From the IMG/VR virus record IMGVR_UViG_3300044454_000036, positions 1-39,227 of that record: a stretch of 39,227 nucleotides of DNA; one strand, written 5' to 3'. This DNA is from a virus (taxonomy: Duplodnaviria; Caudoviricetes). Positions within the stretch are counted from its first letter, which is position 1; the number at the start of each line of letters is the position of its first letter. The notes under the pieces were generated by a model. The model saw only the letters and a program-made list of their open reading frames with translations. It was not told the origin of the DNA and ran no database searches. This document shows, one piece after another, positions 1 through 36,829 of the stretch. Made by a program: the position numbers and the translations under genes.

Positions 1-85
1 TGCCGAGGGCACCTATGAGGACTGGATGCGCTATCACGGCATCACCGATGTCCCCTCGTGGGACGTATACCAGCCGGTGCTGTGA
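1..85 (+). CDS. 3' end of a hypothetical protein (partial)
   Basis: Frame 2 is open from the window edge (AEGTYEDWMRYHGITDVPSWDVYQPVL) to TGA at 83-85 with GC3-rich codons. Confidence 0.6.
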   Translation, partial: AEGTYEDWMRYHGITDVPSWDVYQPVL

Positions 86-86
86 G

Positions 87-188
87 GTGCCCCGTATCGA
101 CCGCTCCCTGACCGTCGTCGGCTACATCCTCATTCTCATCACGGCCCTCTACTTCGGTGCCCACGTGGGCATCGCTGTGTTCAGATAG
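87..188 (+). CDS. Small single-TM membrane peptide (33 aa)
   Basis: GTG directly after the upstream stop; MPRIDRSLTVVGYILILITALYFGAHVGIAVFR has a hydrophobic core; not in the supplied ORF track. Confidence 0.65.
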   Translation: MPRIDRSLTVVGYILILITALYFGAHVGIAVFR

Positions 189-196
189 GAGACACC

Positions 197-406
197 ATGT
201 TCCACAAGTCGGTGTTCAGCCCACAGGGCATCAGGCCCAGACGCATCTGGCTCCGGTATGCGTGGGTCGAATGCGAGCGTCCACGCATCGAGGTGTCGGT
301 GACCGACTCACGCCTCAAGTTCCCGACCGAGTACATCTTCAGCATCGTCATCCTCAGGTGGCGCTGGGAGCGCAAGCACCTGTCAGGGAAGGAGGCCATC
401 CGATGA
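197..406 (+). CDS. Hypothetical protein (69 aa)
   Basis: AGGAG RBS at 187-191; ATGA overlap with the next gene. Confidence 0.7.
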   Translation: MFHKSVFSPQGIRPRRIWLRYAWVECERPRIEVSVTDSRLKFPTEYIFSIVILRWRWERKHLSGKEAIR

Positions 407-912
407 CTGACATCCGCTCGCGGCACGTCCGCAGCAACAGCCGTCCCAACTACTGCGCTCAAGACGGAGACTGGTGGGGCGAGAACGGCTGCGACGCCGC
501 CATCGCCCTAGCCATGCTCGACAAGGCCGAGGCTGCGCTGGCCGACCTGAACGCCGTCACCATCGAGTGGTGGGTCTGCGCGTGGTGCGATGCCCGCTTC
601 CCGTACACGGACGGCCCTGACACGCTCAAGGCGCACTCGACCGTCTGCCCATCCCATCCCGGCAACATCAGGGCCGACAAGGCCGAGGCTACGCTGCGGG
701 GAGCCACGGACGCCCTTCTGTATGAGCGCGACAAGGTGGCCGACATGCTTGCCCAGCGTGACGCCGCCCGTGGCGACGCGGAGCGACTGGCCGAGGCGCT
801 GGGTCCGTTCGTCAGTTTCGCTATCAGGACCGGGCGCAGCAACGAGGCAATCGTCCGAGAGGCCGACGCCGCCCTCACCGCCCACAAGGAGGCCACCTCC
901 GATGGGGCGTGA
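403..912 (+). CDS. Hypothetical protein with Zn-finger-like CxxC...H..C motif and coiled coil
   Basis: Start reassigned to ATG 403 (GGAGG RBS, ATGA overlap); CAWC...HSTVCPSH; Ala/Glu-rich helical tail. Confidence 0.75.
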   Translation: MTDIRSRHVRSNSRPNYCAQDGDWWGENGCDAAIALAMLDKAEAALADLNAVTIEWWVCAWCDARFPYTDGPDTLKAHSTVCPSHPGNIRADKAEATLRGATDALLYERDKVADMLAQRDAARGDAERLAEALGPFVSFAIRTGRSNEAIVREADAALTAHKEATSDGA

Positions 913-1126
913 CCTGACCACCCTTCGCCCCGTCGATGCCCTCGACCGTCTCTGGACCGGGGGCGAGACGCACATCGCCATCGAGGTGCGCCACTCCATG
1001 AACGGCACGTGCTTCGAATGTGCCCATAGCCCAGCCCGCGTCTACGTGCAGGGTCGCCTGCTCTGCGGCGTGTGCTGGAACAAGGTCATGTGGCTCAGGT
1101 GGGCCAGAAAGGAGACAAGTGCCTGA
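902..1126 (+). CDS. Small Zn-ribbon protein
   Basis: ATG 902 after AGGAGG; CFEC...CGVC. Confidence 0.7.
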   Translation: MGRDLTTLRPVDALDRLWTGGETHIAIEVRHSMNGTCFECAHSPARVYVQGRLLCGVCWNKVMWLRWARKETSA

Positions 1127-1358
1127 CCTCGACCTCGCCTCTCATCGGCGGGCCATCCCGCCACCCCCTCGCTGGACGAAACACGAGCCCGAGGGCCGTG
1201 CCGATACGACCCACAAGCCCCGCGTCCAGTCAGGGATACGCTTCACGGGTGGCCCCAAGTTCTGGTGCTACCTCTGCAACGCCGAGCATCCCATCGAGGA
1301 GTGCATGAAGGAGCGACCGCATCGACGGCGCTGCGACTACTGCAGGCGGGTCGCTTGA
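1119..1358 (+). CDS. Small Zn-finger protein
   Basis: GAAAGGAG RBS at 1107-1114, GTG 1119; CYLC...CDYC. Confidence 0.7.
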   Translation: MPDLDLASHRRAIPPPPRWTKHEPEGRADTTHKPRVQSGIRFTGGPKFWCYLCNAEHPIEECMKERPHRRRCDYCRRVA

Positions 1359-1660
1359 CTCCCACAGCACCCCCTGACCGACCTCGACAGGCTCCCGCAT
1401 TAGACCCCACGGTCCCGTGCGTCGAATGGGACGGCGAACTGGACCGGGACGGCTACGGTCGTTCCGGCTCAGGCCGCTCGCACAGTCAGCAGGCTCACCG
1501 CTTCGTCTGGGAGGAGGAGGTGGGCGAGATACCCGAGGGCCTGACCCTCGACCACATGTGCCTCAACCGGGCGTGCGTCAACCTGCGCCATCTGGACCTC
1601 GTGACATGGAGCGAGAACAGCAAGCGCAGATGGCGGGACAAGCCCATCGGGGGCATGTAA
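1355..1660 (+). CDS. HNH endonuclease (HNH_3 type)
   Basis: CVEWDG..DGYG...AHRFVWE...IPEGLTLDHMCLNRACVNLRHL..VTWSEN is the typical phage HNH_3 pattern; TTG 1355 start inferred from TTGA overlap. Confidence 0.9.
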   Translation: MTPTAPPDRPRQAPALDPTVPCVEWDGELDRDGYGRSGSGRSHSQQAHRFVWEEEVGEIPEGLTLDHMCLNRACVNLRHLDLVTWSENSKRRWRDKPIGGM

Positions 1661-1671
1661 CCTAGCCCAAG

Positions 1672-1729
1672 GGCCACCGTCCAAGGCCGCGTGCCTCCGG
1701 GGACTTCCCGCATCACATGGGCGGTGGCC
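1672..1729 (+). other. Intergenic multi-stem RNA structure
   Basis: GGCCACCGTCCA pairs with TGGGCGGTGGCC (12 bp, one G-U), enclosing AGGC/GCCT and CGGG/CCCG hairpins. Confidence 0.55.
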
Positions 1730-1735
1730 TCATCC

Positions 1736-1765
1736 TTGACATGCCCACTAGGCTCGATGTAGCCT
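1736..1765 (+). promoter_or_regulatory. Sigma70-type promoter
   Basis: TTGACA-18 nt-TAGCCT in the intergenic gap upstream of a GAAAGGAG RBS. Confidence 0.7.
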
Positions 1766-1795
1766 ACGGGGTAACCCGCTACTGAAAGGAGCATC

Positions 1796-2008
1796 GTGTT
1801 CATCGGGTCGCCACTAGAGGAGCCATTCAGGCTCATCACTTGGCTGGTCATCGGACTCCCGCTCGCCGCCGTCATCGTCTGGCTGGGACTCATCATCCTG
1901 AGTTTCATGCTGACGTTCGCAGCGCTGGCGGTGGGCGTCGTCATCAGCATGGTCGGGTACGTCATCGGTATCCCCTATGCCATCTACAACAGCCTCACGC
2001 ACCGCTGA
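1796..2008 (+). CDS. Small hydrophobic membrane protein (70 aa)
   Basis: GAAAGGAG RBS with GTG start; about 50 consecutive mostly hydrophobic residues. Confidence 0.8.
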   Translation: MFIGSPLEEPFRLITWLVIGLPLAAVIVWLGLIILSFMLTFAALAVGVVISMVGYVIGIPYAIYNSLTHR

Positions 2009-2019
2009 AAGGAGCCACC

Positions 2020-2589
2020 GTGCCTCACGCACCACTAGCCCCGGACTGGGAGGGCCACGGGGACATCGGGCCCGACCACGGACAGGCCAGAGCGTCCGAC
2101 CTGCCCACCGCCAAGGCCGCTGCCGCGCAGGTCAAGCCGGGTGGTGCCCGGTATGCCCTGCTGATTGCCCACCTATCCGACCTTGAAGGGATGACGGACG
2201 AGGAGGCTGCCATCAGGGCTGGCCTCTCGCTGACATCCGAATACGCCACACGCTGCTCCGAGTTGGCGCGTGCGGGCTATCTGCATGACACCACGCTGAC
2301 CCGAGTGGGCCGTTCAGGCGTTCGCCGGGTCGTGCGCTCCATCACCGACTTGGGCATCGACCTGATGAAGGCGCACGGGTACGAGCCCGTGGCCCCAAGC
2401 AAGTTCGTCTGTCAGGGCTGCGGCAAGGTGTCCGAGTTGAAGGACATGTACTCCAAGTGGGGCAAGCCGCAGGTCGTGGGCTGGATGCTCAACAGGGACG
2501 GCGTCGAGAAGCGGCTGATGGAGGCCAAGTGCATCACCTGTGAAACCAAGCCCCGCAAGGGCCTGCAAGCCATCTGGAGGGAGCAATGA
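2020..2589 (+). CDS. Winged-HTH DNA-binding protein with C-terminal Zn ribbon
   Basis: GAAAGGAG RBS with GTG 2020; ARASDLPT..AA then GMTDEEAA...YATRCSEL..AGYL..T..TR.GRSG (phage wHTH pattern); CQGC...CITC. Confidence 0.7.
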   Translation: MPHAPLAPDWEGHGDIGPDHGQARASDLPTAKAAAAQVKPGGARYALLIAHLSDLEGMTDEEAAIRAGLSLTSEYATRCSELARAGYLHDTTLTRVGRSGVRRVVRSITDLGIDLMKAHGYEPVAPSKFVCQGCGKVSELKDMYSKWGKPQVVGWMLNRDGVEKRLMEAKCITCETKPRKGLQAIWREQ

Positions 2590-2927
2590 GCGCCATCACC
2601 TATCTCGTCATCGAGCCTGACGGGAGCATCGAGGTCAAGACGGGCGTGCTGGGCGTGAAGGAGGCCCAAGCCATCTTGGCCAGCGACATCGAGATGCTGG
2701 ACGCCCCGGAAGGGCTCCGCGTCACCATCATCGTCGGCACCGAGGGCAAGACTCGTGGCGACAACCCCAACTGGGGCATCACGCGCCTCGTGCGCAGCCA
2801 ACTGCGTGCTGGTGACTTCGTCACCGGCAGGGTCATCATCGCGGGCATCACCGGGCCCGATGGCGACCCCACCTCCCTGACCGTCAAGGACGAGCAGGCC
2901 ATTCGCACCACCATCAACAGCAAGTGA
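2586..2927 (+). CDS. Hypothetical protein, DUF3846-like
   Basis: LVIEPDG...Q.IL...IE...EGK.....N...T...DFVTG..II.G...DGD..SL resembles DUF3846. Confidence 0.6.
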   Translation: MSAITYLVIEPDGSIEVKTGVLGVKEAQAILASDIEMLDAPEGLRVTIIVGTEGKTRGDNPNWGITRLVRSQLRAGDFVTGRVIIAGITGPDGDPTSLTVKDEQAIRTTINSK

Positions 2928-2934
2928 GGGAGAC

Positions 2935-3354
2935 ATGAGAGTCGTAGCCGCAATCGCACTCACCGCAGCCATCCTCATCGCCGGGGCCTCGCCTACCGTG
3001 GCCTTCGACACGCAGGACTTCGCCTCTCACGCCGTGGCGTGGCAGACCAAGTCGAGGGCCATCGTGAACGACATGCGCCCCAACCCCGCCAGCATCAACC
3101 GCTCTCTCAACCGGCTGGCTGCCTCAGTCGAGCGTTACACCGACTGGCTCTACGAGGCCGTGCCCGACCAATGCCAGCGCGAGCATGGCTTCGGCCAGCA
3201 CAGGTACTTCGTCAGGATGTACTACCAGAACGTCATCGGGGCCATGGTGGCGATGCCGAACACGCTCGTCGCCAGCCGCTACGTCAAGCGCTTCGTCTAC
3301 TACTACAAGCAGGCCGACAACGCTGGCTCGCGGGTCCTTGAGGCGTGTTGGTGA
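2935..3354 (+). CDS. Secreted protein with N-terminal signal peptide
   Basis: GGGAG RBS; MRVVAAIALTAAILIAGASPTVA followed by a soluble helical domain with 2 Cys. Confidence 0.75.
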   Translation: MRVVAAIALTAAILIAGASPTVAFDTQDFASHAVAWQTKSRAIVNDMRPNPASINRSLNRLAASVERYTDWLYEAVPDQCQREHGFGQHRYFVRMYYQNVIGAMVAMPNTLVASRYVKRFVYYYKQADNAGSRVLEACW

Positions 3355-3818
3355 GGTCTATCGACGTGCCGGGGCGACCCCGCCCTCAGGGGTCGCTCCG
3401 CACCATCTCCCCGCTGCGGGGCGGCAAGCCCGTGACCGTCCATGCCGACGCTCGCATCATGGACTACCGCAACGACATCCAGAACACGTGGGTGCGTGAC
3501 TCCCACACACCCCCCGAAACGGGCGACATCCTCATGCACCTCACGTTCTGGTTCGCACGCCCGAACGGGCACTACAAGGATGCGGCCCCCACGCTCAAGC
3601 GAGAGGCCCGCACCGTGTTGAGGCCGAGTGCGCCCTTCTACATGAAGAGCAAGCCTGACCTCGACAAACTCATCAGGGCGGTCGGGGACGCGCTCACCGG
3701 CTTCGCCTTCTGGGACGACCAGCAGGTCGTTCAGGTCCACGCCGCCAAGGTGTGGGGCGAATACGACCACACCCTCATCGAGGTAATGACGATGGAGGAA
3801 CACGATGCCGAGTCATGA
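3351..3818 (+). CDS. rusA: RusA-family Holliday junction resolvase
   Basis: VPGRPRPQGS...F.FARP...KPDLDKLIRAVGDALTG...DDQQVV...A.K motifs. Confidence 0.92.
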   Translation: MRSIDVPGRPRPQGSLRTISPLRGGKPVTVHADARIMDYRNDIQNTWVRDSHTPPETGDILMHLTFWFARPNGHYKDAAPTLKREARTVLRPSAPFYMKSKPDLDKLIRAVGDALTGFAFWDDQQVVQVHAAKVWGEYDHTLIEVMTMEEHDAES

Positions 3819-4110
3819 CTGGGACTGGACCTCGCAGGTCATCCAGCCTCACGGCTTCGCCACCATCGAATGGGACCACGCAGCGCTCCCGACCAAGTTC
3901 TGGGAGAGCGTGACCCGTATGCCCAACGGCTGCTGGAAGACGAACATCGAGCAGCCCAGCAACTACCGTGAGTTGGCCGTCCAGCGCATCACGAGGGTGA
4001 ACCCCAAGGACTGCCTCTCGATTACCCCCACGTGCGGCGACTACAGGTGCGTCAACCCGGCCCACACCTGCGTCACCCTTCGAACCGCACTCAGCCAGAG
4101 GGAGCAATGA
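3805..4110 (+). CDS. Degenerate HNH_3-like protein
   Basis: KFWESV....GCW and TCGDYRCVNPAH are present, but the catalytic His and the final xEN are missing. Confidence 0.65.
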   Translation: MPSHDWDWTSQVIQPHGFATIEWDHAALPTKFWESVTRMPNGCWKTNIEQPSNYRELAVQRITRVNPKDCLSITPTCGDYRCVNPAHTCVTLRTALSQREQ

Positions 4111-4364
4111 TGGGCACGACAGCCGAGGAGCAGCCCGAGTACCGAGGCGTCATCGCCAAGGCGGGGCACCAGTTCGAAATCATCACCACGGGCGCTGCCG
4201 ATACCGCTTACGGGCGACGTGGCGGCAGCCTCTACCCTATCGTCCTGTTGGCGGTGCTTACCGTCGCCCTTGCCTTGTCGGCAGGTCCCGTACTCCTGCT
4301 TGGCGTGGGTTTGCTGGCCATTCTGCTGCTGGGCATCTGGGTGGGCGGCGGTGGGCACCGCTGA
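4107..4364 (+). CDS. Membrane protein (C-terminal TM hairpin)
   Basis: ATGA overlap; LYPIVLLAVLTVALALSAGPVLLLGVGLLAILLLGIWV. Confidence 0.7.
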   Translation: MMGTTAEEQPEYRGVIAKAGHQFEIITTGAADTAYGRRGGSLYPIVLLAVLTVALALSAGPVLLLGVGLLAILLLGIWVGGGGHR

Positions 4365-4368
4365 CTAC

Positions 4369-4397
4369 TTGACAGTAGGCTAATATCGTGCCAACCT
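4369..4397 (+). promoter_or_regulatory. Sigma70-type promoter for the recombination/replication operon
   Basis: TTGACA-17 nt-CAACCT with an extended TG at 4389-4390; the -35 box sits within the inverted repeat CTACT-TGAC-AGTAG. Confidence 0.6.
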
Positions 4398-4434
4398 AGG
4401 GGTCCACATCCTTTGTTCTCTTGAAAGGAGACAC

Positions 4435-5301
4435 GTGAGCGGCGGTCCTATCAACGCTCAGATAGACACCGACACCGGCCTGAGGTACTACCAGTTCAAC
4501 GAGCAGCGGCTCGTGTCGGCCACGAGTATCCGCAAGTCGGTCGGGATGCCGAACGACCTGCACAACTGGGTCGTCAACCAGAACATCGACGCCCTCCTGA
4601 ACGACTCCACGCTGGCAATCGTCGCGCTTGCCAAAGAGTCCAAGGAGTTGGAGCGGCGCGTCAAGCACCGTGACGGGCGTGTCGAGACGGATGCAGAGGC
4701 GTACCTGCGGGCTCGCAGGGCTGCTCGCGCCATCGTGCGAAAGGCTGCCGACTTCGACCGTGATACCGCCGCTGCGCTGGGCACCGCCGTTCACGAGGCT
4801 GCGGACCAAGGCATCTCGGGCACCTCTCTGACCGACAGCGACGAGCGCAAGCCGTTCCTCGCCCAGTACGAGCGCTGGCAAATCGAGCAGCGGCCCGACA
4901 TCCTCCTGTCCGAGCAGCAGGTCTTCAACCTGACGCTTGGGTACGCCGGGTCCTTCGACCTCATCGCAGACATGCCGAACGGCACGTCGTACACGCGCAC
5001 GCTCATCGACATCAAGACAGGGAAGGGGGTCTATTCCGACCACGCATTGCAGTTGGCCCTCTACATGGGGGCCGAGTTCATCGGTGGCTTCGACCCCATC
5101 GAGGACATGGATGTCGTGTACGAGGTGCAGACCGAGGTCTTCAAGTCCTGCACCCAGATGGCCGTCCTGCACCTGCGGCCCGACATGTACGAGATGGTGT
5201 ACATCCCACTCACCGACGAGTTGGCGGCTGCTGCGGTGGACATGGTCCGCTTCTCGGCCTTCCTGCTCAAGCACCCAGACATCAGCACTCTGAAAGGATG
5301 A
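4435..5301 (+). CDS. PD-(D/E)XK exonuclease (Cas4/RecB-like phage recombination nuclease)
   Basis: SATSI...GTAVH...SEQQV...GYAGSFDLI...IDIKTGK....HALQLALY; GAAAGGAG RBS. Confidence 0.9.
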   Translation: MSGGPINAQIDTDTGLRYYQFNEQRLVSATSIRKSVGMPNDLHNWVVNQNIDALLNDSTLAIVALAKESKELERRVKHRDGRVETDAEAYLRARRAARAIVRKAADFDRDTAAALGTAVHEAADQGISGTSLTDSDERKPFLAQYERWQIEQRPDILLSEQQVFNLTLGYAGSFDLIADMPNGTSYTRTLIDIKTGKGVYSDHALQLALYMGAEFIGGFDPIEDMDVVYEVQTEVFKSCTQMAVLHLRPDMYEMVYIPLTDELAAAAVDMVRFSAFLLKHPDISTLKG

Positions 5302-5975
5302 CGACCATGGCCGCTACACCTGACCTGCTCACCACACTTGGCGAGCCCACCCCAATCGAGGAAATCAAGAAGCGCCCCATCTTCAACAAGGACAAGGTGA
5401 AGGTCGGGGAGTTGGACTACGTCGATGCCCGGTACGTCATGGACCGCCTCGACTCCACCGTGGGGCCAGCCTTCTGGCAGGACGCCTACGAGTTGCAGGG
5501 AGACGGCACCGTGAAGGCGCGTGTCGGCATCCTCTGCTCGCTCACCCCCGACCACGCCGAGTGGGTCTGGAAGGAGGACGTGGGCACCGAGTCCACCATC
5601 GAGGCCGAGAAGGGCGCCTTCTCCGACGCCTTCAAGCGTGCCTGCGTCAAGTGGGGCATCGCTCGTGACCTGTATGACGCACGTGCAGGGCAGTCGGGCA
5701 AGGGCCCCAAGCCTGCAGCCGGTCAGTCCAGCACGCAGGTCCGCGCTGCGACCAGCCAGCCCAAGTCCTTCCCCGTCAACCCCAGCGATGCGCCGTGGGT
5801 CTGCCCTGAGCATCAGGCCGTCAGCGCGTGGCCTGCTGGCACGTCAGCCAACGGTCGCAAGTACGACGCCTTCTACTCCTGCCCGCAGGGACGTGATTGC
5901 TCCCACCGTGCCCCCTTCGGGCTCAAGGTCAAGCCTGAGCATCTGACCGGGCACAACGACAACCTGCCCTTCTGA
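5298..5975 (+). CDS. Rad52/Rad22 (Sak-like) ssDNA annealing protein with C-terminal Zn finger
   Basis: YVDARYVMDRLD..VG...WQ..Y...WVWKEDVG......EKGAFSDAFKRACVKWGIARDLY; CPEH...CPQGRDC; SSB-like DNLPF tail. Confidence 0.9.
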   Translation: MTTMAATPDLLTTLGEPTPIEEIKKRPIFNKDKVKVGELDYVDARYVMDRLDSTVGPAFWQDAYELQGDGTVKARVGILCSLTPDHAEWVWKEDVGTESTIEAEKGAFSDAFKRACVKWGIARDLYDARAGQSGKGPKPAAGQSSTQVRAATSQPKSFPVNPSDAPWVCPEHQAVSAWPAGTSANGRKYDAFYSCPQGRDCSHRAPFGLKVKPEHLTGHNDNLPF

Positions 5976-6325
5976 TGGGCAGCAAGGTAGCCCTGCCGAC
6001 AGGCAGGACGGGTGGCCGCTCCGTCAAGCGTGACTTCTGGTTCGCTCGTGTCTTGGACGGCCAGCACCCGTCCGAGGACGAGCGCATCCAGATGGACCGC
6101 ATCATCCCGCCTGACGCCATCGCCTCATGGTCGTGGGCCATGGTTCACGCCGAGTTGAACGACTACTGGCTCGTCATCCAGTTGGACGACAGCAGCCCAG
6201 AGGTCAGGCGCAGGGACATCAACACCGTGCGTGCGTCCGTGTGGCGCACGTGCCAGAACAGGCGTGGCCTCGACCTGCACAGCACGGTCGTCGGTGACCG
6301 CATGTACATCAGGTCGCTGTCATGA
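5975..6325 (+). CDS. Hypothetical protein
   Basis: TGATG coupling with the upstream gene; GC3-rich codons. Confidence 0.7.
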   Translation: MGSKVALPTGRTGGRSVKRDFWFARVLDGQHPSEDERIQMDRIIPPDAIASWSWAMVHAELNDYWLVIQLDDSSPEVRRRDINTVRASVWRTCQNRRGLDLHSTVVGDRMYIRSLS

Positions 6326-6690
6326 ACATCCTCATCACGGGCACGAGGCACCCGCTGGTGGCCGAGTCGGTGCGCGTCATCATGAACGCCATCGACGCCA
6401 ACGTGCCCATGAGCAGGTACCACCTGCTCATCCACGGGGACGCCAAGGGCGTCGATACCTTCGTCGCGCAGCAGGCGGTGGAGTGGGGGTGGGACGTATG
6501 TGCCCACCCTGCCGACTGGACCGCCTACGGCAAGGCTGCTGGCCCGATGCGCAATCAGGCCATGCTCAACCATCACCGTGACATCAACCTCGTGCTGGCC
6601 TTCCCGGCATCCGACTCACGAGGGACGTGGGACATGGTCGAGCGTGCCGTGAAGGCACGCCTGAACGTGCGCGTCTACCCCCTGCCATGA
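6322..6690 (+). CDS. SLOG-superfamily protein (DUF2493/YspA-like)
   Basis: ILITGTR...IHGDAKGVD...PADW..YGKAAGPMRNQAM...VLAFP...SRGT.DMV..A. Confidence 0.9.
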   Translation: MNILITGTRHPLVAESVRVIMNAIDANVPMSRYHLLIHGDAKGVDTFVAQQAVEWGWDVCAHPADWTAYGKAAGPMRNQAMLNHHRDINLVLAFPASDSRGTWDMVERAVKARLNVRVYPLP

Positions 6691-7007
6691 GCGAGGACGG
6701 GTTCGAACGTGGCATGGAGGAGAGCGAGAAGGCTGCTCGCTACAAGTGGACCGACCTTGAGAACGAGATGGTCATGTATGCCATCGAGTACTGCGCGAGG
6801 ACCAGACCCGAGTTCACAGCCGACCGGGTGTGGGCCGTATTGGGCGAGGGCTTCCCCGTCACCAAGGGCATGGCTGCCCGACTGAACAAGTCTGCGGGCC
6901 TTGGCCTTATCGTGGCCACGGACGACTTCCGCAGGTCCACCCGCAAGGGCGAGCATGGCCGTGGCCAGCGGCTGGGCGTCTGGCGCAGCCTCATCTACAA
7001 GCCATGA
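6687..7007 (+). CDS. Putative wHTH DNA-binding protein
   Basis: ATGA overlap at 6687; EFTADRVW...GA-like...GLI..T....S.R...H.....VWRS is a common phage pattern. Confidence 0.6.
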   Translation: MSEDGFERGMEESEKAARYKWTDLENEMVMYAIEYCARTRPEFTADRVWAVLGEGFPVTKGMAARLNKSAGLGLIVATDDFRRSTRKGEHGRGQRLGVWRSLIYKP

Positions 7008-8056
7008 AGCCGAACGTCTACGCAGCGTTGGACCTCTATCTGGGGTCCTTCGCTGCCCGTCACGATGCCTTCGTCAAAGACTCGCACGTCCACCTCGAAA
7101 GACCCCTCACGCCCGAGGTAGCAGCCGCTGCCTTCGGCGTGGGGGGTTTCTCTGTTTCCGGCTACATGGCCGTCTTCAAGCCGTACGTCGATGACCTTGG
7201 CGTCACGTGGGCAGCGCAGCGTGTGTGCATGACGCACGTGGGCGCTATCGACTTCGACATGGAGGATGGTTTCGACAGGGCCAAGGTCGTGCGCTCTTTC
7301 CTTGGCACGCAGGGCATCGACTCCCTGCTCGTGGGCTCACGACGTGGCGCTCACCTCTGGGTCATCACCACGGGTGACGGCTCGCACGAGTCCGAAACCT
7401 TCGGCATGGTGCCCGCTGCGACCATGCGGCGTGCCCTCAAAGCGGCCCTCACCCTGTGCGGGATAAGCGACCCCAAGGCAGAGGTCTTCCCCAAGGACAG
7501 CGCCTCTGACTGGGGCGTGGGTGCCCTGCGCATGCCCCTGATGCGGCACCCCAAGTCAGGTGTACGCTACCCAGCCTATGACCCCTTCGATGACTCGCCC
7601 ATCACGTCCGTTGGCACCCTCGTGAACGTGATGGCAGACATCCAGATGGCGACCGCGTACAAGGCTCTGTACGCCCTCGCAGGCCCTGAAGTGGGTCCAG
7701 AGCCGTATCCGGGGAGACAGGGCCTGCAGCGCCCGCCTATCGTGGCCACGGGGGACGCTCCGAGAGTGTCGGACCTTCTCGCGCACCACTTCGGGCTGCA
7801 GGTCACGCCCGGCAGGTCCATCAAGTGCCCCATCCACCCTGATAGCCACGCCTCCATGTCGGTCGCAGACGACGACATGCGGGTCTGGTGCAAGGCTCCT
7901 GAGTGCCCCATCTACAACGGGGACACGGGCCTAGGGTCGCTGGGGCTGGAGAGTTACCTTGGAAAGGGGACACCGCCTTGCTCCACGCCATCGAGCAGAC
8001 CGCCAACGGGTACAGGGTCGGCTTCAAGTCCGACGCCGGGAGAGCGCCCTACCTGA
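7004..8056 (+). CDS. AEP-superfamily primase-polymerase (TOTE-like) with C-terminal CHC2-type Zn finger
   Basis: AIDFD (motif I), SRRGAHLW (motif II), EVFPK...G.GALRMPL; CPIHPD...S.SV....WCKAPEC. Confidence 0.85.
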   Translation: MKPNVYAALDLYLGSFAARHDAFVKDSHVHLERPLTPEVAAAAFGVGGFSVSGYMAVFKPYVDDLGVTWAAQRVCMTHVGAIDFDMEDGFDRAKVVRSFLGTQGIDSLLVGSRRGAHLWVITTGDGSHESETFGMVPAATMRRALKAALTLCGISDPKAEVFPKDSASDWGVGALRMPLMRHPKSGVRYPAYDPFDDSPITSVGTLVNVMADIQMATAYKALYALAGPEVGPEPYPGRQGLQRPPIVATGDAPRVSDLLAHHFGLQVTPGRSIKCPIHPDSHASMSVADDDMRVWCKAPECPIYNGDTGLGSLGLESYLGKGTPPCSTPSSRPPTGTGSASSPTPGERPT

Positions 8057-9051
8057 CCTTCGACTTCGACTACGTCGAGCCGACCTCGTGGGGGATATTG
8101 ACCACCCTCACCGTGCGCACCACCATCGACACCATCACCTCCCTCCCTGATGATGTCGTCCTCCTCACCCGCATGAACCTCATGAAGGAGTCCGAGAGGG
8201 AGCAGGTCGCCAAGCGCATCGGCGCTCTCATCGTGCCCCAGCAGAGCGCGACCCCTCAGGACTGGCGACGGCACCTAGAGTGGGCCACCGTCATCCTCAA
8301 CTCCCAACTCCAGAAGTCGGTCCCCACCATGGACATGTCCGGTGAGGTCATGACCGAGCGGCGCAAGTTCCTCATCGACGGCCTGCTCGCTCAGGGCAAA
8401 GCGAACATCCTGTACGGCCCCGGAGGCGCAGGCAAGTCCGTGCTGGCGGTGCGCATCGCGGCAGCCGTGGCCCATGGGGGCAACCTCTTCGGGTGGGCGG
8501 TCAGGGAGGAGGGCACGACCCTCTACCTCGACTGGGAGGACGACGCCACCACCATGGTCGAGCGCACGCACATGGTGGCCAAGGGCATGGGGCGCAGGGA
8601 CAACGTGCCCATCATCTACCAGTCCCTGCACGGCAAGGGACCCTACGAGCGGCACCACGCTGACGTGCTGTTCCACGTGAAACAGGACCCGAACATCAAG
8701 TTGGTCATCTTCGACAGCACGGCCATGGCCATGCACGGCAGCAGCGCAGGTGATGGAGCGGACGGGGCCATCAGGTTCTACTCGCTGGTGTCACAGATAC
8801 CGGCCACGGTGCTGCTCCTCGACCACCTGAGCAGCGACGACGTGAAGGCTGGCAGCGCAGCCAAGCCATACGGCTCTGTCTTCAAGGTCAACTCCGCACG
8901 CAACGTGTGGGAACATCGCCCATGGAACCCGCAGGCTGGGGTCACGGGCTTCACGCTCGTGCATCGCAAGACGAACGTCGGGCCACGCTTGCAGGACCGG
9001 GACGTGTCCGTGTCATGGGGAGCAGACGACGTGAGGTTCGATGACCTATGA
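7978..9051 (+). CDS. AAA_25/RepA-like SF4 DNA helicase
   Basis: Walker A YGPGGAGKS, LYLDWE, Walker B LVIFDS, LLDH, PYGSVF..NSAR; start is TTG 7978 after GAAAGGGG, or the frame is reached by frameshift. Confidence 0.88.
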   Translation: MLHAIEQTANGYRVGFKSDAGRAPYLTFDFDYVEPTSWGILTTLTVRTTIDTITSLPDDVVLLTRMNLMKESEREQVAKRIGALIVPQQSATPQDWRRHLEWATVILNSQLQKSVPTMDMSGEVMTERRKFLIDGLLAQGKANILYGPGGAGKSVLAVRIAAAVAHGGNLFGWAVREEGTTLYLDWEDDATTMVERTHMVAKGMGRRDNVPIIYQSLHGKGPYERHHADVLFHVKQDPNIKLVIFDSTAMAMHGSSAGDGADGAIRFYSLVSQIPATVLLLDHLSSDDVKAGSAAKPYGSVFKVNSARNVWEHRPWNPQAGVTGFTLVHRKTNVGPRLQDRDVSVSWGADDVRFDDL

Positions 9052-9215
9052 GCGAGTGCCGTGGCTGCCCACACGAGCCGCATAAGCACACGTGGGTGCG
9101 CATCTTCACCGAGGATGGCCAGCACGTGGTGCGTATCGAGTGCAGCGGCTGCCAGATGACCCCGTACGAGGTGCTGCTGAAGCGCTACGTGAGAAAGAGA
9201 GAGGCCCCGGTCTAG
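9048..9215 (+). CDS. Small Zn-binding protein (55 aa)
   Basis: ATGA overlap; MSECRGCPHEPHKHTW...IECSGCQ; not in the supplied ORF track. Confidence 0.7.
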   Translation: MSECRGCPHEPHKHTWVRIFTEDGQHVVRIECSGCQMTPYEVLLKRYVRKREAPV

Positions 9216-9223
9216 CCGGGGCC
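9192..9223 (-). terminator. Intrinsic terminator ending the late operon (possibly bidirectional)
   Basis: GGCCCCGG-CTAGA-CCGGGGCC stem followed by TCTCTCTTTCT on the - strand, at the convergence of the two arms. Confidence 0.75.
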
Positions 9224-9271
9224 CGCCTCTGAAAGGAGACACCGTGCGAGTCGTCTTCGCCCGGAGCCGAC
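9192..9271 (-). ncRNA. Candidate anti-Shine-Dalgarno small RNA
   Basis: Non-coding on the - strand; carries CACGGUGUCUCCUUUCAG just 5' of the terminator; TAGAGT -10-like box at 9276-9281. Confidence 0.4.
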
Positions 9272-9301
9272 GCTTACTCTACACGCTCAGTCAACCCTGC
9301 G

Positions 9302-9826
9302 CTACCGCCTGCGCCTGCGTACCACCATCTGTGCCTTGCGCTGGGTCACCGGACGCTTGCCTACGTTGGGCGTCCGCTTCGCCTTCGGCCTCGTGACCTT
9401 GGCCTTGGCCTTGGGCTTGGCCATTGTCTTTGCGTTGGCCTTGGGTGTCTTTGCGGCCACGGCAGCGGTCGGTGCCTCGACCATTCGGTACTGCTCCACA
9501 CCAGCAGGCCCGCTGGTCATGCCGACCCTCGTCACGCCGACCTTGCCACCACGAGTCGTGGTCTTGCGCGTGCGCTCAAGACCTAGTCCACGTGGTGCGA
9601 CCCCGCCCGTGCCAGCCTCGCTGGCCAGTTCGAACGACCTCGCTGCGCTTCCGCCATTACCAGTCACGGACTTGGCTGTCGGGCCGGGCGTGCCCTGCCT
9701 GCGTGAGCGCAGCAACTTCCTGCCGAAGGCGACCTTCTCCTTGCGGGTATCGACGCCCTTCGACTTGAGGTTCTGGCGGCGAGCCTGAGGCATGGACCTC
9801 CATGCCTTCAGGCCCTTCTTCACCAT
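9302..9826 (-). CDS. Highly basic K/R-rich protein (histone H1/protamine-like composition)
   Basis: AAKTPKANAKTMAKPKAKAKVTRPKAKR, ends RRRRR; few acidic residues. Confidence 0.75.
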   Translation of the reverse strand: MVKKGLKAWRSMPQARRQNLKSKGVDTRKEKVAFGRKLLRSRRQGTPGPTAKSVTGNGGSAARSFELASEAGTGGVAPRGLGLERTRKTTTRGGKVGVTRVGMTSGPAGVEQYRMVEAPTAAVAAKTPKANAKTMAKPKAKAKVTRPKAKRTPNVGKRPVTQRKAQMVVRRRRR

Positions 9827-9829
9827 GGC

Positions 9830-10240
9830 TTACGCCCGCTTCTTCATCATGGCGGCGGTCTGCTTGGCGGCGCGGTTCCTGACGACCTTGGTCGAGAGGT
9901 TGGGCTTGCGCGTGCGCAGGCCAGCCTTGATGGTGGTGCGGATGGCACGCCGCGTGGACTTGGCGTCCCCGTTCGTGGCAGCAGCCTTCTGGGCGAGGGT
10001 CGCCTTGCTGGTCGGGTTCTTGGAGCCGACCCGGTAGTTCGTGACGCCCTTCTTGCCGACCGTCGCCTTCATCTTGGTGGTCTTGCCAGAGAGCCCGCCC
10101 TTGAGGGCGTCGAACGTCTCCTGAGCGGACTTCATCTTGGGCATCGTGCGCTTCCCTTTCTGCTCCTTGTCCCAGCGAGCGGCGATGTCCGGGTGCTGGG
10201 CGTGCATGAAGGCCCGCTGTTTGGCAGACCTGTAGGGCAT
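9830..10240 (-). CDS. Basic protein with MPYxSxxQRxFMHAxHPxIAxRW N-terminal motif
   Basis: I recognise this motif from small conserved phage proteins; K/R/T-rich remainder. Confidence 0.75.
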   Translation of the reverse strand: MPYRSAKQRAFMHAQHPDIAARWDKEQKGKRTMPKMKSAQETFDALKGGLSGKTTKMKATVGKKGVTNYRVGSKNPTSKATLAQKAAATNGDAKSTRRAIRTTIKAGLRTRKPNLSTKVVRNRAAKQTAAMMKKRA

Positions 10241-24582: not shown

Positions 24583-27500
24583 TTACTGTAGCACTCCACC
24601 GGGCTGCAACCTTGATGGTTCCGGCATTTCCGGTGGCATCAAACCACGGCTGCGCAGGTCAGCCTGCTCGGCCTCCACGCGCTTCCGCTCCGCTAGTGGG
24701 ACGTATGTCCCAGTCGCCATCTGCACGGCAGACTGCAGCGACTTCTGCAGGTCCCCGGCGACGGCGAGGATGTCCTTCGGCGCACGACCGGGGCCGAAGG
24801 CGTACTGCACGGTGTCGGTGATGGCAGCGCCGATGTTCGGCTCATCGCCAGCCCATGCGTTCTGGGCCAGCCTGCGCGTCCACGCAGGCGCGTTGACCGG
24901 GATGTCCCAAGGCGTGCCCGGCACCATCAACTGCATGAAGTGCGTGAGGGCTGGCATCGACTCGACCAAGTCCGCGATGGTGCTGTCGTCCGTGGCCAGT
25001 TCCAGTTGGACGGCCTCCCAGACGTGGTTGACCATGGCCAGCCCGGCGAACGGAGCGTCCACCCCGAAGGGCTTGCGCACGAGGAAGCGCATCAACTCGG
25101 GCAGCACCTTGCCCCACATGTAGGAGGCCGGGTACATGCCGAGATAGGGATGGTTGATGGTGCGCTCCAGCAGCGTGCGCCCACGCTTGTAGTAGTGGAC
25201 CCGGAACGCCTCTTCCTCGGCCCGCTGCAGGGCCACGCGAGCCGCCTCAAGGATGCGGTACTCGTTCACGTCGAAGGTGGCGGCTGGCCCGCGATGGACC
25301 TCGGGCGTCATGGAGTCGAAGAGCCCTTGGATGGACGGGTCGATGTGCTGACCCGCGACCTTGTTGGGGTTCAGGGTCTGCCACATCTGGGCGTACTGGT
25401 TGAAGACGGCAGCGATGGTCGGGTCACCGACAGGAGCGACACCTGTCGCCACGTACTCTTCGAAGGCAGCCGCCATCCACTCCTCGGCCTCGCGCACGAG
25501 GACGTTGTTGGCGTTCTTCCCGGTCGGCTGGACGCCGCCACGCTTCAGGAACGCTTGCCCCTCAGGACTGGCGAAGAAGACGTTGTGGATGGTCTTGATG
25601 GCCGATGGGTCGAGGTCGTCGGCCATGAAGTGGAACGTCTCGTGGACGACCGTCGTTACGTCGGCCTTTCCTCGCTTGAGATAGAGAGTCCCCCTTCGAC
25701 CGGAAGTGGCTCCGGTAGCGACTCGCTGGGCGGTGGTTCGCCCTCGGTCCCAAGCGACGGCTCCTCGGAAGCCTCGGGGGCTGTACTGGGTAAGGATGTT
25801 CCCACCCCCGGTCCCTGCTGCTCCGACAGAGCGGTCTGGGCCATCAACGAAGCCGAGGCGACTTCGTCCTCTAGCCCAAGCCTCGGGGTCTGACTTTCGG
25901 ATGGCGGTGTCTGCTCTGGCTCGTAGGGTTGCCATATGCCCACCGACCACTCGTTGTCTGACATCGTCCTTACCTCGTGCTGTCAGGTCGGCCTGCAACT
26001 TGCGACCCATCTCCTCGGCCCAGATGGCGTCGGCTGCAGGGCCCTCGGCGCCTTCCTTGGTGATGCGAGCCTCGGCCCTCGCTTCGTCACCATCGTAGTC
26101 GTGCTTGCGCCGCTTCGTCACGAACAACTCTCGTGCGACCGTGACCCTCTGCGGGTCGAGGCCCATCTCCGTGGCCCACTTGCCGCTCTCCAGCGTGTCC
26201 ACGATGGACTGGGGCAGGACCATCTGCTCCGTGAACATCTCACGGTCGAGCCCGTCAAGGTCGTCGTACAGCGTGCGCACCGACTCGCCCAGCGTGCGGG
26301 GAGTCATGGCCATCATGGAGCCGTCCCAGCGGAAGCCCTCCTTGCCACGCTGGCTGCCAAGCCACAGGCGCAGGGCCTCCAGCGTGCGAGCGTCGGCCCC
26401 GCCCTCGGGCACGAAGTCGATGCCCCAGACGCGGCCACCCTTGACGTTGCTGGACGAGAAGTCACTCAGCCTGCCGGGGTAGGTGACGGCCACGATGTCA
26501 CGGTTCTGTGTCAGCAGCGAGAGTGAGTCCAGAGCGTCGTCAATGGCCTCAGGAGCCCCGATGATGCTCCATGACGTGTTTGCACTCACGACGCCGTCCG
26601 TGCGGCCCCAGCCCGGCTGATGGCGCAGCACGGTGACGCCCGTCTCCTGCTCGATGATGTCCACCAAGTCGGCGGTCACGGTGCGAGTGACGTGGTCCTG
26701 ATGGTCAGGCGTCAGCATGGAGAGGTCGAAGCCCCGGCGTAGCGGCACGTGGTCGCTGGGCCGATATTCGAACTCCACGTCCACGATGTTCTTGCCGACC
26801 ATGCCGTAGTGGCTATCCGGGTCGAGGCCCAGTTGCTTCTGGATGCGCAGCCAGTCAACGGCCTGCACGTCACGAGCCTCCCACGCTCGCCCACCACGCT
26901 CGTCCATCAGGTAGCCAGAGGCGTTCCACTCTTGGGCGATGGTGTTGTACTTGTGCGTGATGAACTCGTACTGCTTCGTGGACGGCTGCCCACCAGCCAC
27001 ATCCTTGACCGACTTCAGGCCGAGTTGGTTGGCCACGTCGGCCATGGCCTGCTTCTCCATGGCCTCGCTGATGGGCCCCTTGTAGCCCTGCTGTCGCAGC
27101 ATGTGCCGACCCGCGTAGCGCAGGAAGCCCTCGTCCGCGAAGCCTGACGCTCGCAGCGCCCAGACATCACCAGCCACCGGCTGGCTGCTGTCCACATACG
27201 AGACACCATCGTCAGCCAGCATGACGGTGCGCTGGGACAAGCCGAGGTTGCCGTCCGTGAAGTCGTGCAACTTGGCGGCTGCGCCCGCAGAGGTGACGGA
27301 GTCTTCGAAGTCCCTGAGCATGCGGTCCAGTTGCCTGTTCAACTCGGGCTTGGTGATGCCCTTCTGGTCTGGACGCCTGCCGCGCAACTCGCGGTCCATC
27401 ATCTTCGTGATGTAGCCGATGCCGTCTCGTGGCGAGGTCTGCGACTGTGTCATCGACCACGCCATCATCATGCGAGCGGCGACCTCGTCCCTCACGTTGT

Positions 27501-30500
27501 CGAGGTCGTTGAGGTCGATGCTCGGCACCGACTTCATACGCTGGTTCATGAGGGTGGCGTAGTCGGTAATCGTCTCGTCCGTCAGGTTGCGAGCGAGCGA
27601 CGTGAACATGGACGGGATGTACAGGTACCAGTCGCCTGCCGACGCCACGTTCTGCCTGCCCAAGACCTGCTCGGCACGAGCGGTGAAGTCCTTGAGCGAG
27701 ACGGCAGGGTCCATGTCGATACCGGCCACGCTTGCACCAGCCTTGGCCTTGCCCTTGCCTTCGGGCACCCAGTCAACGGCAGAGCCGCCAGCCGCGATGT
27801 GGGCTCGCAGCCCGTTCCCGGCATTGACATGGTCCTTGCGAACATCGGGCCTGCGCGTCTGGACATGCAACTCGCGAGCCCGGTCACGGACACGCAGCGC
27901 CTCGGGCGAGTCGGGCGCGAACTGCTCCCAGCCCCACTCGTCGTAGATGTCATTGAAGACACGCTGCGGGTGGGCGGTATACGGCAACTTGGCGTTGCTG
28001 TTGAGCCAGACCGCAGGGCCCGTGAACTTCTGGGCCAGATACTCTTCGACGCTGATGCCCTTGCTGTTGGCGATGATGGTGTGCCAGTCGCGCATGAGGC
28101 CCACGGCCAAGTCACGCTCGACCGGGTTCGTGTAGTGCTGGGCGACCGAGGCGTACAACTCGTCAGGCTCGACACCCACGGCCACGGCGTAGGCCCGTGC
28201 GGCGTATTCAGGGCTGAAGCCATGCTCGACCAGCGACTCGCGGAAGCCCCACTCCTCTAGGGGGTCGGTCGGGTCAAGGAGGCCAGCCCGCAGTTCAAGG
28301 CCAGAGTCGTAGCCGAACTGCTTGGCAAGGTACGACTTGTTGATGCCACGGATGCGACCGAACTCGTCAGGCACGGCGCCGTCGTAGTGGTGGATGCTGA
28401 CCCAGTCGTTGTCCGGGTTGTAGAGGCCCTTGTGCTTCAGGTACTGCTCGGCCACCTCGGCGTGGCTCAGGTTGCCCTTGCCTCCGCTGCGCTTGTCAAG
28501 GTCGTTGAAGTGCGACTGCAGCCTCGTCCATGCGCCGGGGTACTCCTTCTCCAGCGCGTCGTGGAGCAGCGTCCCGAACTCCTGCCTGATGAGGTTGTAG
28601 TAGTTCATCAACTTGGGCGTGCCGACCTTGCCCATGGGCATGTCATCGAAGGCTGCAGCCAACGGCGTGTTCGGGCCAGCGATGTTGCGAGCGTGCTGTG
28701 CGCCCGTCATCAGGAACTCGCGTGACTCGAAACCGTCAGCCAGATGCGAGGCCACGTTCATCTCGTCAATCAGCGAGTGGAACCTGATTTGCTCTGGTGT
28801 GAACTTCATGCCGAACTTCACACCGCGCAGGGCGTTGAAGAAGTAGGGCTCGATGAACTCCTGCATCAGGAAGACGGGGTTCAGGTTGAAGCGGATGGCC
28901 GGGTAGATACCCTCGGCCAGCCTGCCCATGTAGTTGCCGTGCCGCGAGGTGCGCGTCTTCAGGTTGCCCGTCAACTTTGAGGTGCCGCCCACCAAGGCAA
29001 GGTCCGACTCCATGGCCCGTGCCACCAGTTCGGCCAGCCCACGGTAGCCCAGACGCTGCCGGTCGAAGGTCGAGATGTTCGTGCCGTCAAGGATGGCCCG
29101 GAAGCGCTCAGGCGTGAATGAGCGCATGGTCGTCATCTCGGCATTGGCAGCCCGCCTGACCGACTCCCAGAGCGTCATCGACGTGGCCCTGCTCAGGCCG
29201 TACCGCTTGGCCCCCTCCTGCGTGAACGAGCGGCGAGCCTCCTGCATGATGTTCTCGCCACGGATGGGCGTGAAGAGGCGTTCCCGCAGCACGTCGAAGC
29301 GGGTGGGGTTCGTGACATCCTCTGGCGTGGGCCGAATGTCCATCCACGGGTAGTAGCCGACGAGGGCGCCGTCCTCACCGTAGATGGGCTGCCAGCGCTT
29401 CTCGCGTGAGGGAGCGATGCCGAACTCATACGCCTCACCACGAGCGTGCAGTTCAGCACGCAGGGCCTGCATGTTGGCTGGCAGGTTGGCCTCGTTGATG
29501 ACCGTCACGAAGCGGTCGTTCTTGATGCCGTCCGTGAGGATGGCCTTGACCTGCTTGAGCAGCACCTCGTCCGAGGTGATGCGCACCTTCTCGTAGATGT
29601 TCTGGTACAGGACTTCGTACTGGTGGATGGCGTCCTCTGCCAGCCGCACCGCCGTCGCTTCGTCGGCTGCGTTCTCGATGGAGTCGAGCAGCGTGCGAGC
29701 GTTCGCCATCGTCAACTCACGGTCGCCCACGAGCGTGGCACGAGTGATGATGCTGTAGGCGTCCAGCGCCGCTGCCGCCCCGTCAAGGTCAGCCTGCGCC
29801 GCGTTCGGCATGATGGCCTGCTGCGCCGACATCTTGACCGTCTGCTGCCCGCCGATGGCATCAGCCCTGCGGGCCGCTTCGAAGTCGAGGATGGTGCGGC
29901 CCCAATGCGCGTAGTGAACGAAGGCCAGTTCGTCGGGGCCAGCCTTGCTCAGAGCAGTACGCGCCTCGCTGACCGTGATGCCAGCGGCGTGCGACAACTT
30001 CATGGCGTACTCGTCACGGGCGCGGTCCATCTGGCGGGCGTACTCGGCCTGTGCCTCCTTGCCCACCCGTGAACCCACGTCTGGCACGACATCGCGCTTG
30101 ACCCTGCGGACGTGCGACTCCATCTGCTGCGCCTGAGCCGGGTTGCCCACCTTGCGCATCTGGGCAAGCACAGCGTCAGGGTCAGAGAGCGTGTCTGGCA
30201 GGTTGGCAGGGTTCGTGAACTTGCCGTCAGCGTCCCGCCTGTAGAAGCGCACGAGCCGCTGCAGGTTGCCCTGCAGGAGGGAGCGCTGTGAGTAGCCCAG
30301 CGCCGCTCCGACCGACTCGTTGAGGGCGGCAGAGTCAGGCACAGCGCGGTAGATAGCGGCCACCTTCGGCATGTCGAAAGCAGCGAACATGCCCTGAGCC
30401 GTGTTCCTCGTGAAGCGCTTGAGGACGACACCGGCTGCGCCGTCCCTGCCGAAGATGCTGAACGGGGCATTGGCCAACTCGCTGACGCGAGCCGCAGCCT

Positions 30501-36814: not shown

Positions 36815-36829
36815 ATCGGCAGCGTATCA
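36815..36829 (-). promoter_or_regulatory. Extended -10 promoter, probably producing a leaderless portal mRNA
   Basis: TGaTACGCT lies 6 nt upstream of the portal ATG; no SD present. Confidence 0.55.

Follow-up and report, generated by a model that had tools for sequence, protein, structure and literature searches.

What is the function of a sequence that lies where the early and late gene arms of a phage converge and that reads, on one strand, as the complement of early gene starts? The window (the whole stretch of DNA analysed, 39,227 bases) is an uncultured phage record with 65% GC, 84% complete. Its early arm is on the plus strand (1-9215) and includes genes for RusA, an exonuclease, a Rad52/Erf-like annealing protein and an AAA_25 helicase. 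The late arm, with the terminase, portal, capsid and tail genes, is on the minus strand and converges on the early arm, the last gene being at 9826-9302. The high GC content, TANNNT boxes and GAAAGGAG sites suggest what we take to be an actinobacterial-type host. No cultured relative was found by blastn with the window, and a genome scan gave two distant matches and no host.

The initial annotation proposed a late small RNA of about 80 nt in the gap between the arms. All eight strings quoted for it and the TAGAGT box were found at the coordinates given, and the layout from 9281 to 9192 together with the tract matches supports a candidate minus-strand unit of this size, complementary to early start regions. 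The features of the gap and its borders are:

9192-9269, minus strand: predicted small RNA of about 78 nt, its 5' end inferred 7 nt past the -10 box
9276-9281, minus strand: -10-like box TAGAGT (TANNNT), with no convincing -35 in the window genome
9229-9246, minus strand: anti-RBS/anti-start tract, with the invariant core UCCUUUC (9237-9231) predicted unpaired
9238-9268, minus strand: weak 5' stem-loop with the anti-spacer/anti-start bases in its 3' arm (z -0.9, not significant alone)
9192-9230, minus strand: intrinsic-terminator-like hairpin (core 9224-9202) and U-rich tail
9302-9826, minus strand: last late-arm gene (174 aa, K/R-rich), the message of which could read through into the unit
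9244-9396, plus strand: ORF of 50 codons that follows the motif and that we do not regard as a conserved gene

Along the minus strand from 9281 to 9192, the TAGAGT box (9281-9276) is followed by the weak 5' hairpin, by CACGGUGUCUCCUUUCAG and then directly by the strong hairpin and U-rich tail. The terminator-like hairpin (9224-9202) has 9 pairs, 8 of them G-C, and the tail CTCTCTTTCT, and the tract runs straight into it. Folding of the whole unit gave z = -2.8. The window had no Rfam match at the gathering score, and the unit in three relatives had none at E<=1.

The complementary strings are at the starts of early genes on the plus strand. The predicted targets and their duplex energies are:

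182-199, plus strand: start of the 69-aa gene 197-406, -21.9 kcal/mol
1105-1121, plus strand: start of the 79-aa gene 1119-1358, -21.0 kcal/mol
1782-1798, plus strand: start of the 70-aa gene 1796-2008, -26.6 kcal/mol
2005-2022, plus strand: best predicted target, start of the 189-aa gene 2020-2589, 17/18 matches, -28.6 kcal/mol
2929-2945, plus strand: weaker predicted target, start of the gene 2935-3354, -16.1 (18-mer) or -30.1 (42-nt 5' part)
4421-4437, plus strand: start of the exonuclease gene, -25.5 kcal/mol
5290-5309, plus strand: start of the Rad52/Erf-like annealing gene, -21.1 kcal/mol, missed by the initial annotation
7960-7980, plus strand: start of the AAA_25 helicase-like gene, -26.2 kcal/mol

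Pairing at 2929-2945 extends past the start into the coding sequence. The string at 7962-7975 is the helicase RBS, and the TTG start at 7978 was confirmed by homologues. For the protein of the best target the ESM atlas gave only unnamed viral clusters. TTGACA promoter-like sites (1736-1765 and 4369-4397, plus strand) are located directly 5' of 1796 and 4435, two of the strongest predicted target starts.

With up to three mismatches the 18-mer (9229-9246) had three matches, all on the plus strand (182, 2005 and 9229), where 0.03 were expected and 0/100 shuffles did the same. The five copies of GAAAGGAG in the 39 kb are likewise all on the plus strand, at the early gene starts 1107, 1784, 2007 and 4423 and at 9231. 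GAAAGGA occurred in early and late sense, respectively, 5 and 0 times in the window (late sense 29,926 bases), 2 and 0 times in the relative G001 and 7 and 1 times in G002. A cis fold-back onto the late message was rejected, as there is no GAAAGGA in the 29,926 bases of late sense.

The suggested preference for early genes held for the strongest sites, the seven best of 44 window starts (20 early, 24 late) all being early, but it was weak when all starts were ranked. The early/late rank test gave p = 0.067 with the 18-mer (one late start misplaced) and p = 0.035 with a 22-mer (two late starts misplaced), since an SD is missing from about half of the early genes, which directly adjoin their neighbours. 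Duplexes of the 18-mer at -19 or better, a cut-off picked after the data had been seen, were predicted for 9/20 early vs 2/24 late starts (Fisher p = 0.007), and 0/1000 random 18-mers reached nine. With a generic 16S-type anti-SD, early and late starts were not told apart (p = 0.34).

Relatives were obtained only with alignments, single-protein scans of viral contigs having given none. Helicase and capsid searches outlined a family of about 40-50 proteins with 45-97% identity. Scanning with the helicase alignment yielded 25 loci from viral and 80 from metagenome sequence, only five of them close family members: L028 (97% helicase identity to the window), L029 (58%), L031 (57%), L030 (53%) and L003, which is the same as G001 (52%). 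The early/late gap is covered in all five and in the window, giving six members of five lineages with 52-97% helicase identity. The remaining helicase loci served as controls if their GC content was >= 58%; G002, G003 and G004 have no early/late gap in their sequence and are outside the unit counts, and loci L279-L288 were left out of the comparisons. A peptidase alignment added one further true member, G034 (capsid 42%, helicase 34%). L289 and L291 were rejected as members, being unrelated phages with the peptidase alone in common.

Several side observations were made on these genomes. In all relatives seen, the last late genes, like those of the window (9302-10240, minus strand), encode small, very K/R-rich proteins whose sequences are little conserved; they are possibly DNA-condensing core proteins. 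A late protein of 2402 aa (24583-31791, minus strand) had no Pfam or PHROG matches, and TACGCT 12 bases 5' of the portal ATG (36814-36826, minus strand), without an SD, marks a candidate leaderless late transcript. The early arm of G002 (L238 7849-11744) appears by eye to encode a MoxR-type AAA ATPase and, after it, an acidic protein and a vWA-like protein, and a non-coding stretch at L238 5450-6300 has many CTATA/TATAG repeats.

That relatives keep the motif and terminator together was borne out by the close members, as 6/6 (window, L028, L003/G001, L029, L030 and L031) have the same layout in the early/late gap. In the six-way alignment, invariance is limited to the TCCTTTC core, a few bases of the hairpin and two positions upstream, the rest having diverged. 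A TANNNT box is 41-46 bases 5' of the TCCTTTC core in all six, while among 36 TCCTTTC sites in the unrelated GC-rich control loci the -10 box was found at 0/36 and the hairpin at 2/36. The predicted RNA is 76-84 nt long in 6/6. In predicted folding of the six, the core is largely unpaired between two stems (mean from about 0.6 in G001 to 1.0); the 5' hairpin was better than shuffles in only 2/6. By consensus match, which is the sole basis for the promoter and terminator parts, a -10 box and a hairpin were found in 6/6, a U-rich tail directly after the hairpin in 4/6 (L029 and L031 having no U-run there) and a -35 in 2/6, with none found in the other four. The two full -35/-10 pairs, TTGAAG-17-TATGCT in L030 and TTGCGC-18-TAGACT in G001, are of the housekeeping type. 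L029, L030 and L031 have their own plus-strand terminator upstream.

In the strain contigs X2 and X7 the motif and -10 box are unchanged and the neighbouring gene is variable. A 55-aa Cys/His-rich ORF in the window (9048-9215, plus strand) is cleanly missing in L028 and in one X2 contig (144-base skip), and from sequence it looks like a small mobile insertion separating the helicase from the terminator. As X2 and L028 do not have this 55-codon ORF upstream, the unit is independent of it.

Seven more distant capsid relatives (G005, G007, G009, G010, G011, G015 and G017) had no anti-SD unit in a scan that is blind to a tract of the type found in G034. Of the 45 loci that a pattern scan for a hairpin with GAAAGGAG found in unrelated phages, most were an ordinary terminator and RBS, and of six re-inspected only L215 resembled the unit. 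In this unrelated phage with 46% GC, a convergent gap (about 5975-6090) has TATAAT 36 bases before CTCCTTTC, and then a T-run terminator; as a rival explanation, the opposite strand there has a 63-codon ORF. L030 has a second anti-SD-plus-terminator unit (7486-7560, plus strand), located on the early strand immediately past the helicase. It and the minus-strand unit are arranged back to back, and it is composed of the box TGCTACGCT, CATCCTCCTTTCT and a terminator with a T tail.

Alternatively, the motif in the gap could be only the RBS and GTG of a plus-strand gene (9244-9396) or what remains of an early gene since lost. Its spacing is the same as at real early starts, the ORF has 50-51 codons in the window and L028, and a terminator followed by an RBS is common, as most of the 45 pattern matches in unrelated phages illustrate. 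However, the ORF is not conserved across the six members: a start codon after the motif is absent in G001, L029 and L031, and in L030 it opens only 3 codons. Of eight differences between the window and L028 in the overlap of the ORF with the late gene, 7/8 alter the ORF and 3/8 are silent in the late gene. X2 contigs have deletions at the ORF stop, and no Pfam or PHROG matches were found for the ORF. A plus-strand gene would also leave the -10 box on the opposite strand unexplained. A gene or its relic is thus very improbable and already largely refuted, and the motif does not appear to be merely the RBS of a translated ORF.

The bases after the core vary by phage and follow the phage's own early RBS: GAAAGGAGACAC in the window, GAAAGGAGCC in L030 and GAAAGGAGCT in L029. 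In G001, GAAAGGACACAC is in both the element and the helicase site, and GAAAGGAC is in the element and both available early sites. The comparison of own and other elements was limited to the four phages with both an element and early sites (13 sites). In 4/4 phages the own element had the best mean duplex energy for the own early RBS set, and the true pairing of elements with sites ranked 1/24 permutations both by energy and by flank matches, with p no smaller than 1/24 (0.04) because there are only four phages. By flank-match count alone, the window tract scored 4.25 on the L030 sites vs 3.0 for the L030 own tract. By sequence comparison the unit is real, conserved and non-coding, with evidence of a compensatory type.

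The distant member G034 has no GAAAGGA and no unit with the SD core, so the narrow prediction missed. At its early starts the spacers are different, and a 32-base tract of its gap, placed right ahead of the hairpin, is complementary to these starts on the early strand. GCGACATG occurs five times on the early strand of G034, each time at a start, and once on the opposite strand, in the gap. A 7-mer in common with the tract was found for 9/17 G034 starts, which were chosen by eye after the gap had been seen, and 4/22,017 background windows reach that. The same 7-mer test on the window gave 9/20 starts and 0/19,249 background windows, and the cross-scores were 2 and 4. The G034 tract is on the opposite strand vs the window unit, is self-folding and has TTGACG and no TANNNT box. 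Within it (L290 12266-12297), complements of the phage's own early spacer and start sequences stand in tandem before the gap hairpin, and the loop of this hairpin reads UUUCCU on the late strand.

The layout in 6/6 members, the target word found only in early genes and the match to the own sites make an anti-RBS RNA against the early regulon likely, and 9192-9269 is probably a trans-acting small RNA that represses translation of the early genes. Together, the promoter-like box, the anti-RBS tract and the terminator-like hairpin, all conserved, would make a trans-acting RNA of about 78 nt, transcribed presumably from the -10 box and perhaps supplemented by late read-through. The unpaired UCCUUUC would seed on the GAAAGGA core of the target, the weak 5' hairpin would open and the pairing would zip into the spacer and start codon. 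The 30S subunit would be excluded, and about 7-9 early genes with a common extended RBS would be blocked together while late genes are spared. Repression rather than activation is expected because the pairing covers the SD. The RNA would most likely accumulate during infection, damping the exonuclease, annealing protein and helicase as the late programme takes over.

The timing of the RNA is the least certain step of this mechanism. The initial annotation proposed that it is late, but the -35/-10 pairs in two relatives look to be of the housekeeping type and the early strand carries two related tracts. Read-through would make the RNA late-rich, yet with such promoters and early-strand tracts a delayed feedback or immunity role is possible.

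Strictly late RNA would be expected if the tract has no function beyond that of a 3' tail on the late message, or of a piece cut from it. The last late gene of the window ends 20 bases before the -10 box, in L029 and L031 the late-gene stop codon abuts the box, a -35 is absent in 4/6 members and the terminator of the unit is the first one that the late arm reaches. A 3' tail needs no TANNNT box, yet the box is at a fixed distance in 6/6; the full promoter-like pairs of L030 and G001 and the constant predicted length (76-84 nt) also make it unlikely that the tract is no more than such a tail. Less probable still is a c4-like RNA (phages P1/P7) for immunity or superinfection exclusion, which would be transcribed from a host-type promoter during a carrier or lysogenic state and silence the early genes of a resident or incoming similar phage. 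Phage-specific flanks are what heteroimmunity would produce, and the two promoters look housekeeping-type, not late-specific. However, no tyrosine integrase was found in the record (84% complete) and no repressor among 44 proteins scanned, and the predicted targets are numerous replication genes instead of a single antirepressor.

It is also conceivable, if distinctly improbable, that the RNA serves mainly in host shut-off, with the core competing for host mRNAs with a strong SD and the phage early sites matching merely as strong SDs. The invariant core UCCUUUC is, we presume, a copy of the 16S rRNA tail; invariance is confined to these 7 bases, and the word is avoided by late genes. Host shut-off would not explain why flanks outside the 16S-pairing part track the sites of the own phage, why a generic 16S-type anti-SD does not split early from late starts or why the G034 tract fits spacers and start codons in place of the SD. 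All copies within one phage would also be expected to covary if the repeat were the binding site of a phage protein, in DNA or plus-strand RNA, and the gap copy a decoy or operator. Early RNA may indeed cross the hairpin, because the window has no separate plus-strand terminator with a U-run, but L029, L030 and L031 have their own plus-strand terminator upstream. Furthermore, the -10 box and the U-rich tail are both oriented to the minus strand, and the G034 copy is on the other DNA strand than its targets and still antisense towards the hairpin. We regard a protein site as very unlikely.

The trans-acting anti-RBS RNA that we prefer can be compared with several known systems. Streptococcal csRNAs are described as CiaR-dependent and host-encoded and are proposed to block translation initiation in trans (PMC3091779). 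Their anti-SD as well as anti-start-codon sequence lies in an unpaired region between two stem-loops, and in the unit the anti-SD is likewise predicted to be unpaired between stems. In contrast, the anti-start bases of the window unit are in the weak 5' stem, and complementarity to the start codon is found only in the window, L028 and L030. A phage encodes the window unit, which is tuned to that phage's own early sites, whereas csRNAs, as described, are CiaR-driven and have their own conserved word; there was no Rfam match. A CiaR-dependent Streptococcus promoter is not plausible for the unit of a phage with 65% GC.

Closer in origin are c4 of P1/P7 and sar of P22, phage antisense RNAs described as pairing around the RBS and blocking translation, as predicted for the unit, and c4 specificity varies between phages (PMC12197685). 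In that account, c4 and sar control lysogeny through a single antirepressor message, whereas the predicted targets of the window unit are dispersed early genes with one extended RBS, again without an Rfam match; no antirepressor, repressor or integrase was found in the window record (84% complete). The predicted window unit would work like csRNAs and c4/sar and is a member of neither. In the lytic phage PAK_P3, sRNA1 and sRNA2 are abundant late intergenic RNAs of about 100 nt that are proposed to pair, but the targets predicted in the accessible text are tRNA loops or single genes, and no shared early RBS target is reported there (PMC4933390). The accessible parts of PMC4351075 and PMC4933390 contain no case of a phage RNA against a shared early RBS, and none was found in the openly accessible literature.

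SAS is an over-conserved RBS-like repeat at the starts of non-structural genes in cluster K mycobacteriophages and cluster EF Microbacterium phages, described as of unknown function (PMC3203893, PMC11373665, PMC7302621). The early target sites of the window are similar in that they have the RBS position of non-structural genes, are conserved beyond the 16S-pairing bases and are not at structural genes, although the window repeat is looser than the 13-bp cluster K repeat. Pope et al. in 2011 described one inverted SAS copy, not tied to a gene, in four K1 phages (PMC3203893), and in Adephagia, where the role of SAS is given as still unknown, late transcription begins between genes 92 and 93 (PMC11373665). 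We found that the inverted SAS of Adephagia (58682-58694, gene 92-93 gap) presents CCUCCUAUCC in a hairpin loop (z -6.9) downstream of TAGACT. In 13 cluster K gaps the anti-SAS complement was intact in four, pyrimidine-rich but degenerate in four and absent in five. No inverted SAS was found in TM4 24000-52797 or in AnnaSerena (10 SAS), and a covariation test in cluster K was negative, as Amohnition and Unicorn keep the standard SAS despite differing loops. The cluster K copy is in a late leader, whereas the window unit has a promoter-terminator layout, and no sequence kinship was shown. In Adephagia 58578-58715 (L261 28578-28715), TAGACT is invariant in 13/13 cluster K gaps and there are two conserved hairpins, the second with the anti-SAS loop in 4/13; this late-start region resembles a hitherto undescribed structured leader.

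For the most part, the phage antisense RNAs known so far control a single gene. We tentatively propose, as a possibility that we would not call likely, that phages mark their early genes with a private, over-long RBS code, of which one inverted copy is retained and expressed as RNA, as a protein-free early-regulon switch that co-evolves with the code. This would be the purpose of SAS, a parallel that holds for part of cluster K only (4/13), and the switch would have arisen repeatedly, as an RNA with its own promoter here, as the early-strand tract of G034 and as the late-leader hairpin of K1. If this is true, a whole temporal class of genes is shut at translation by an RNA against a shared RBS code, without a repressor protein, and the question of what reads SAS, open since 2011 and restated in 2024, has a testable answer in a cultured phage with public RNA-seq.
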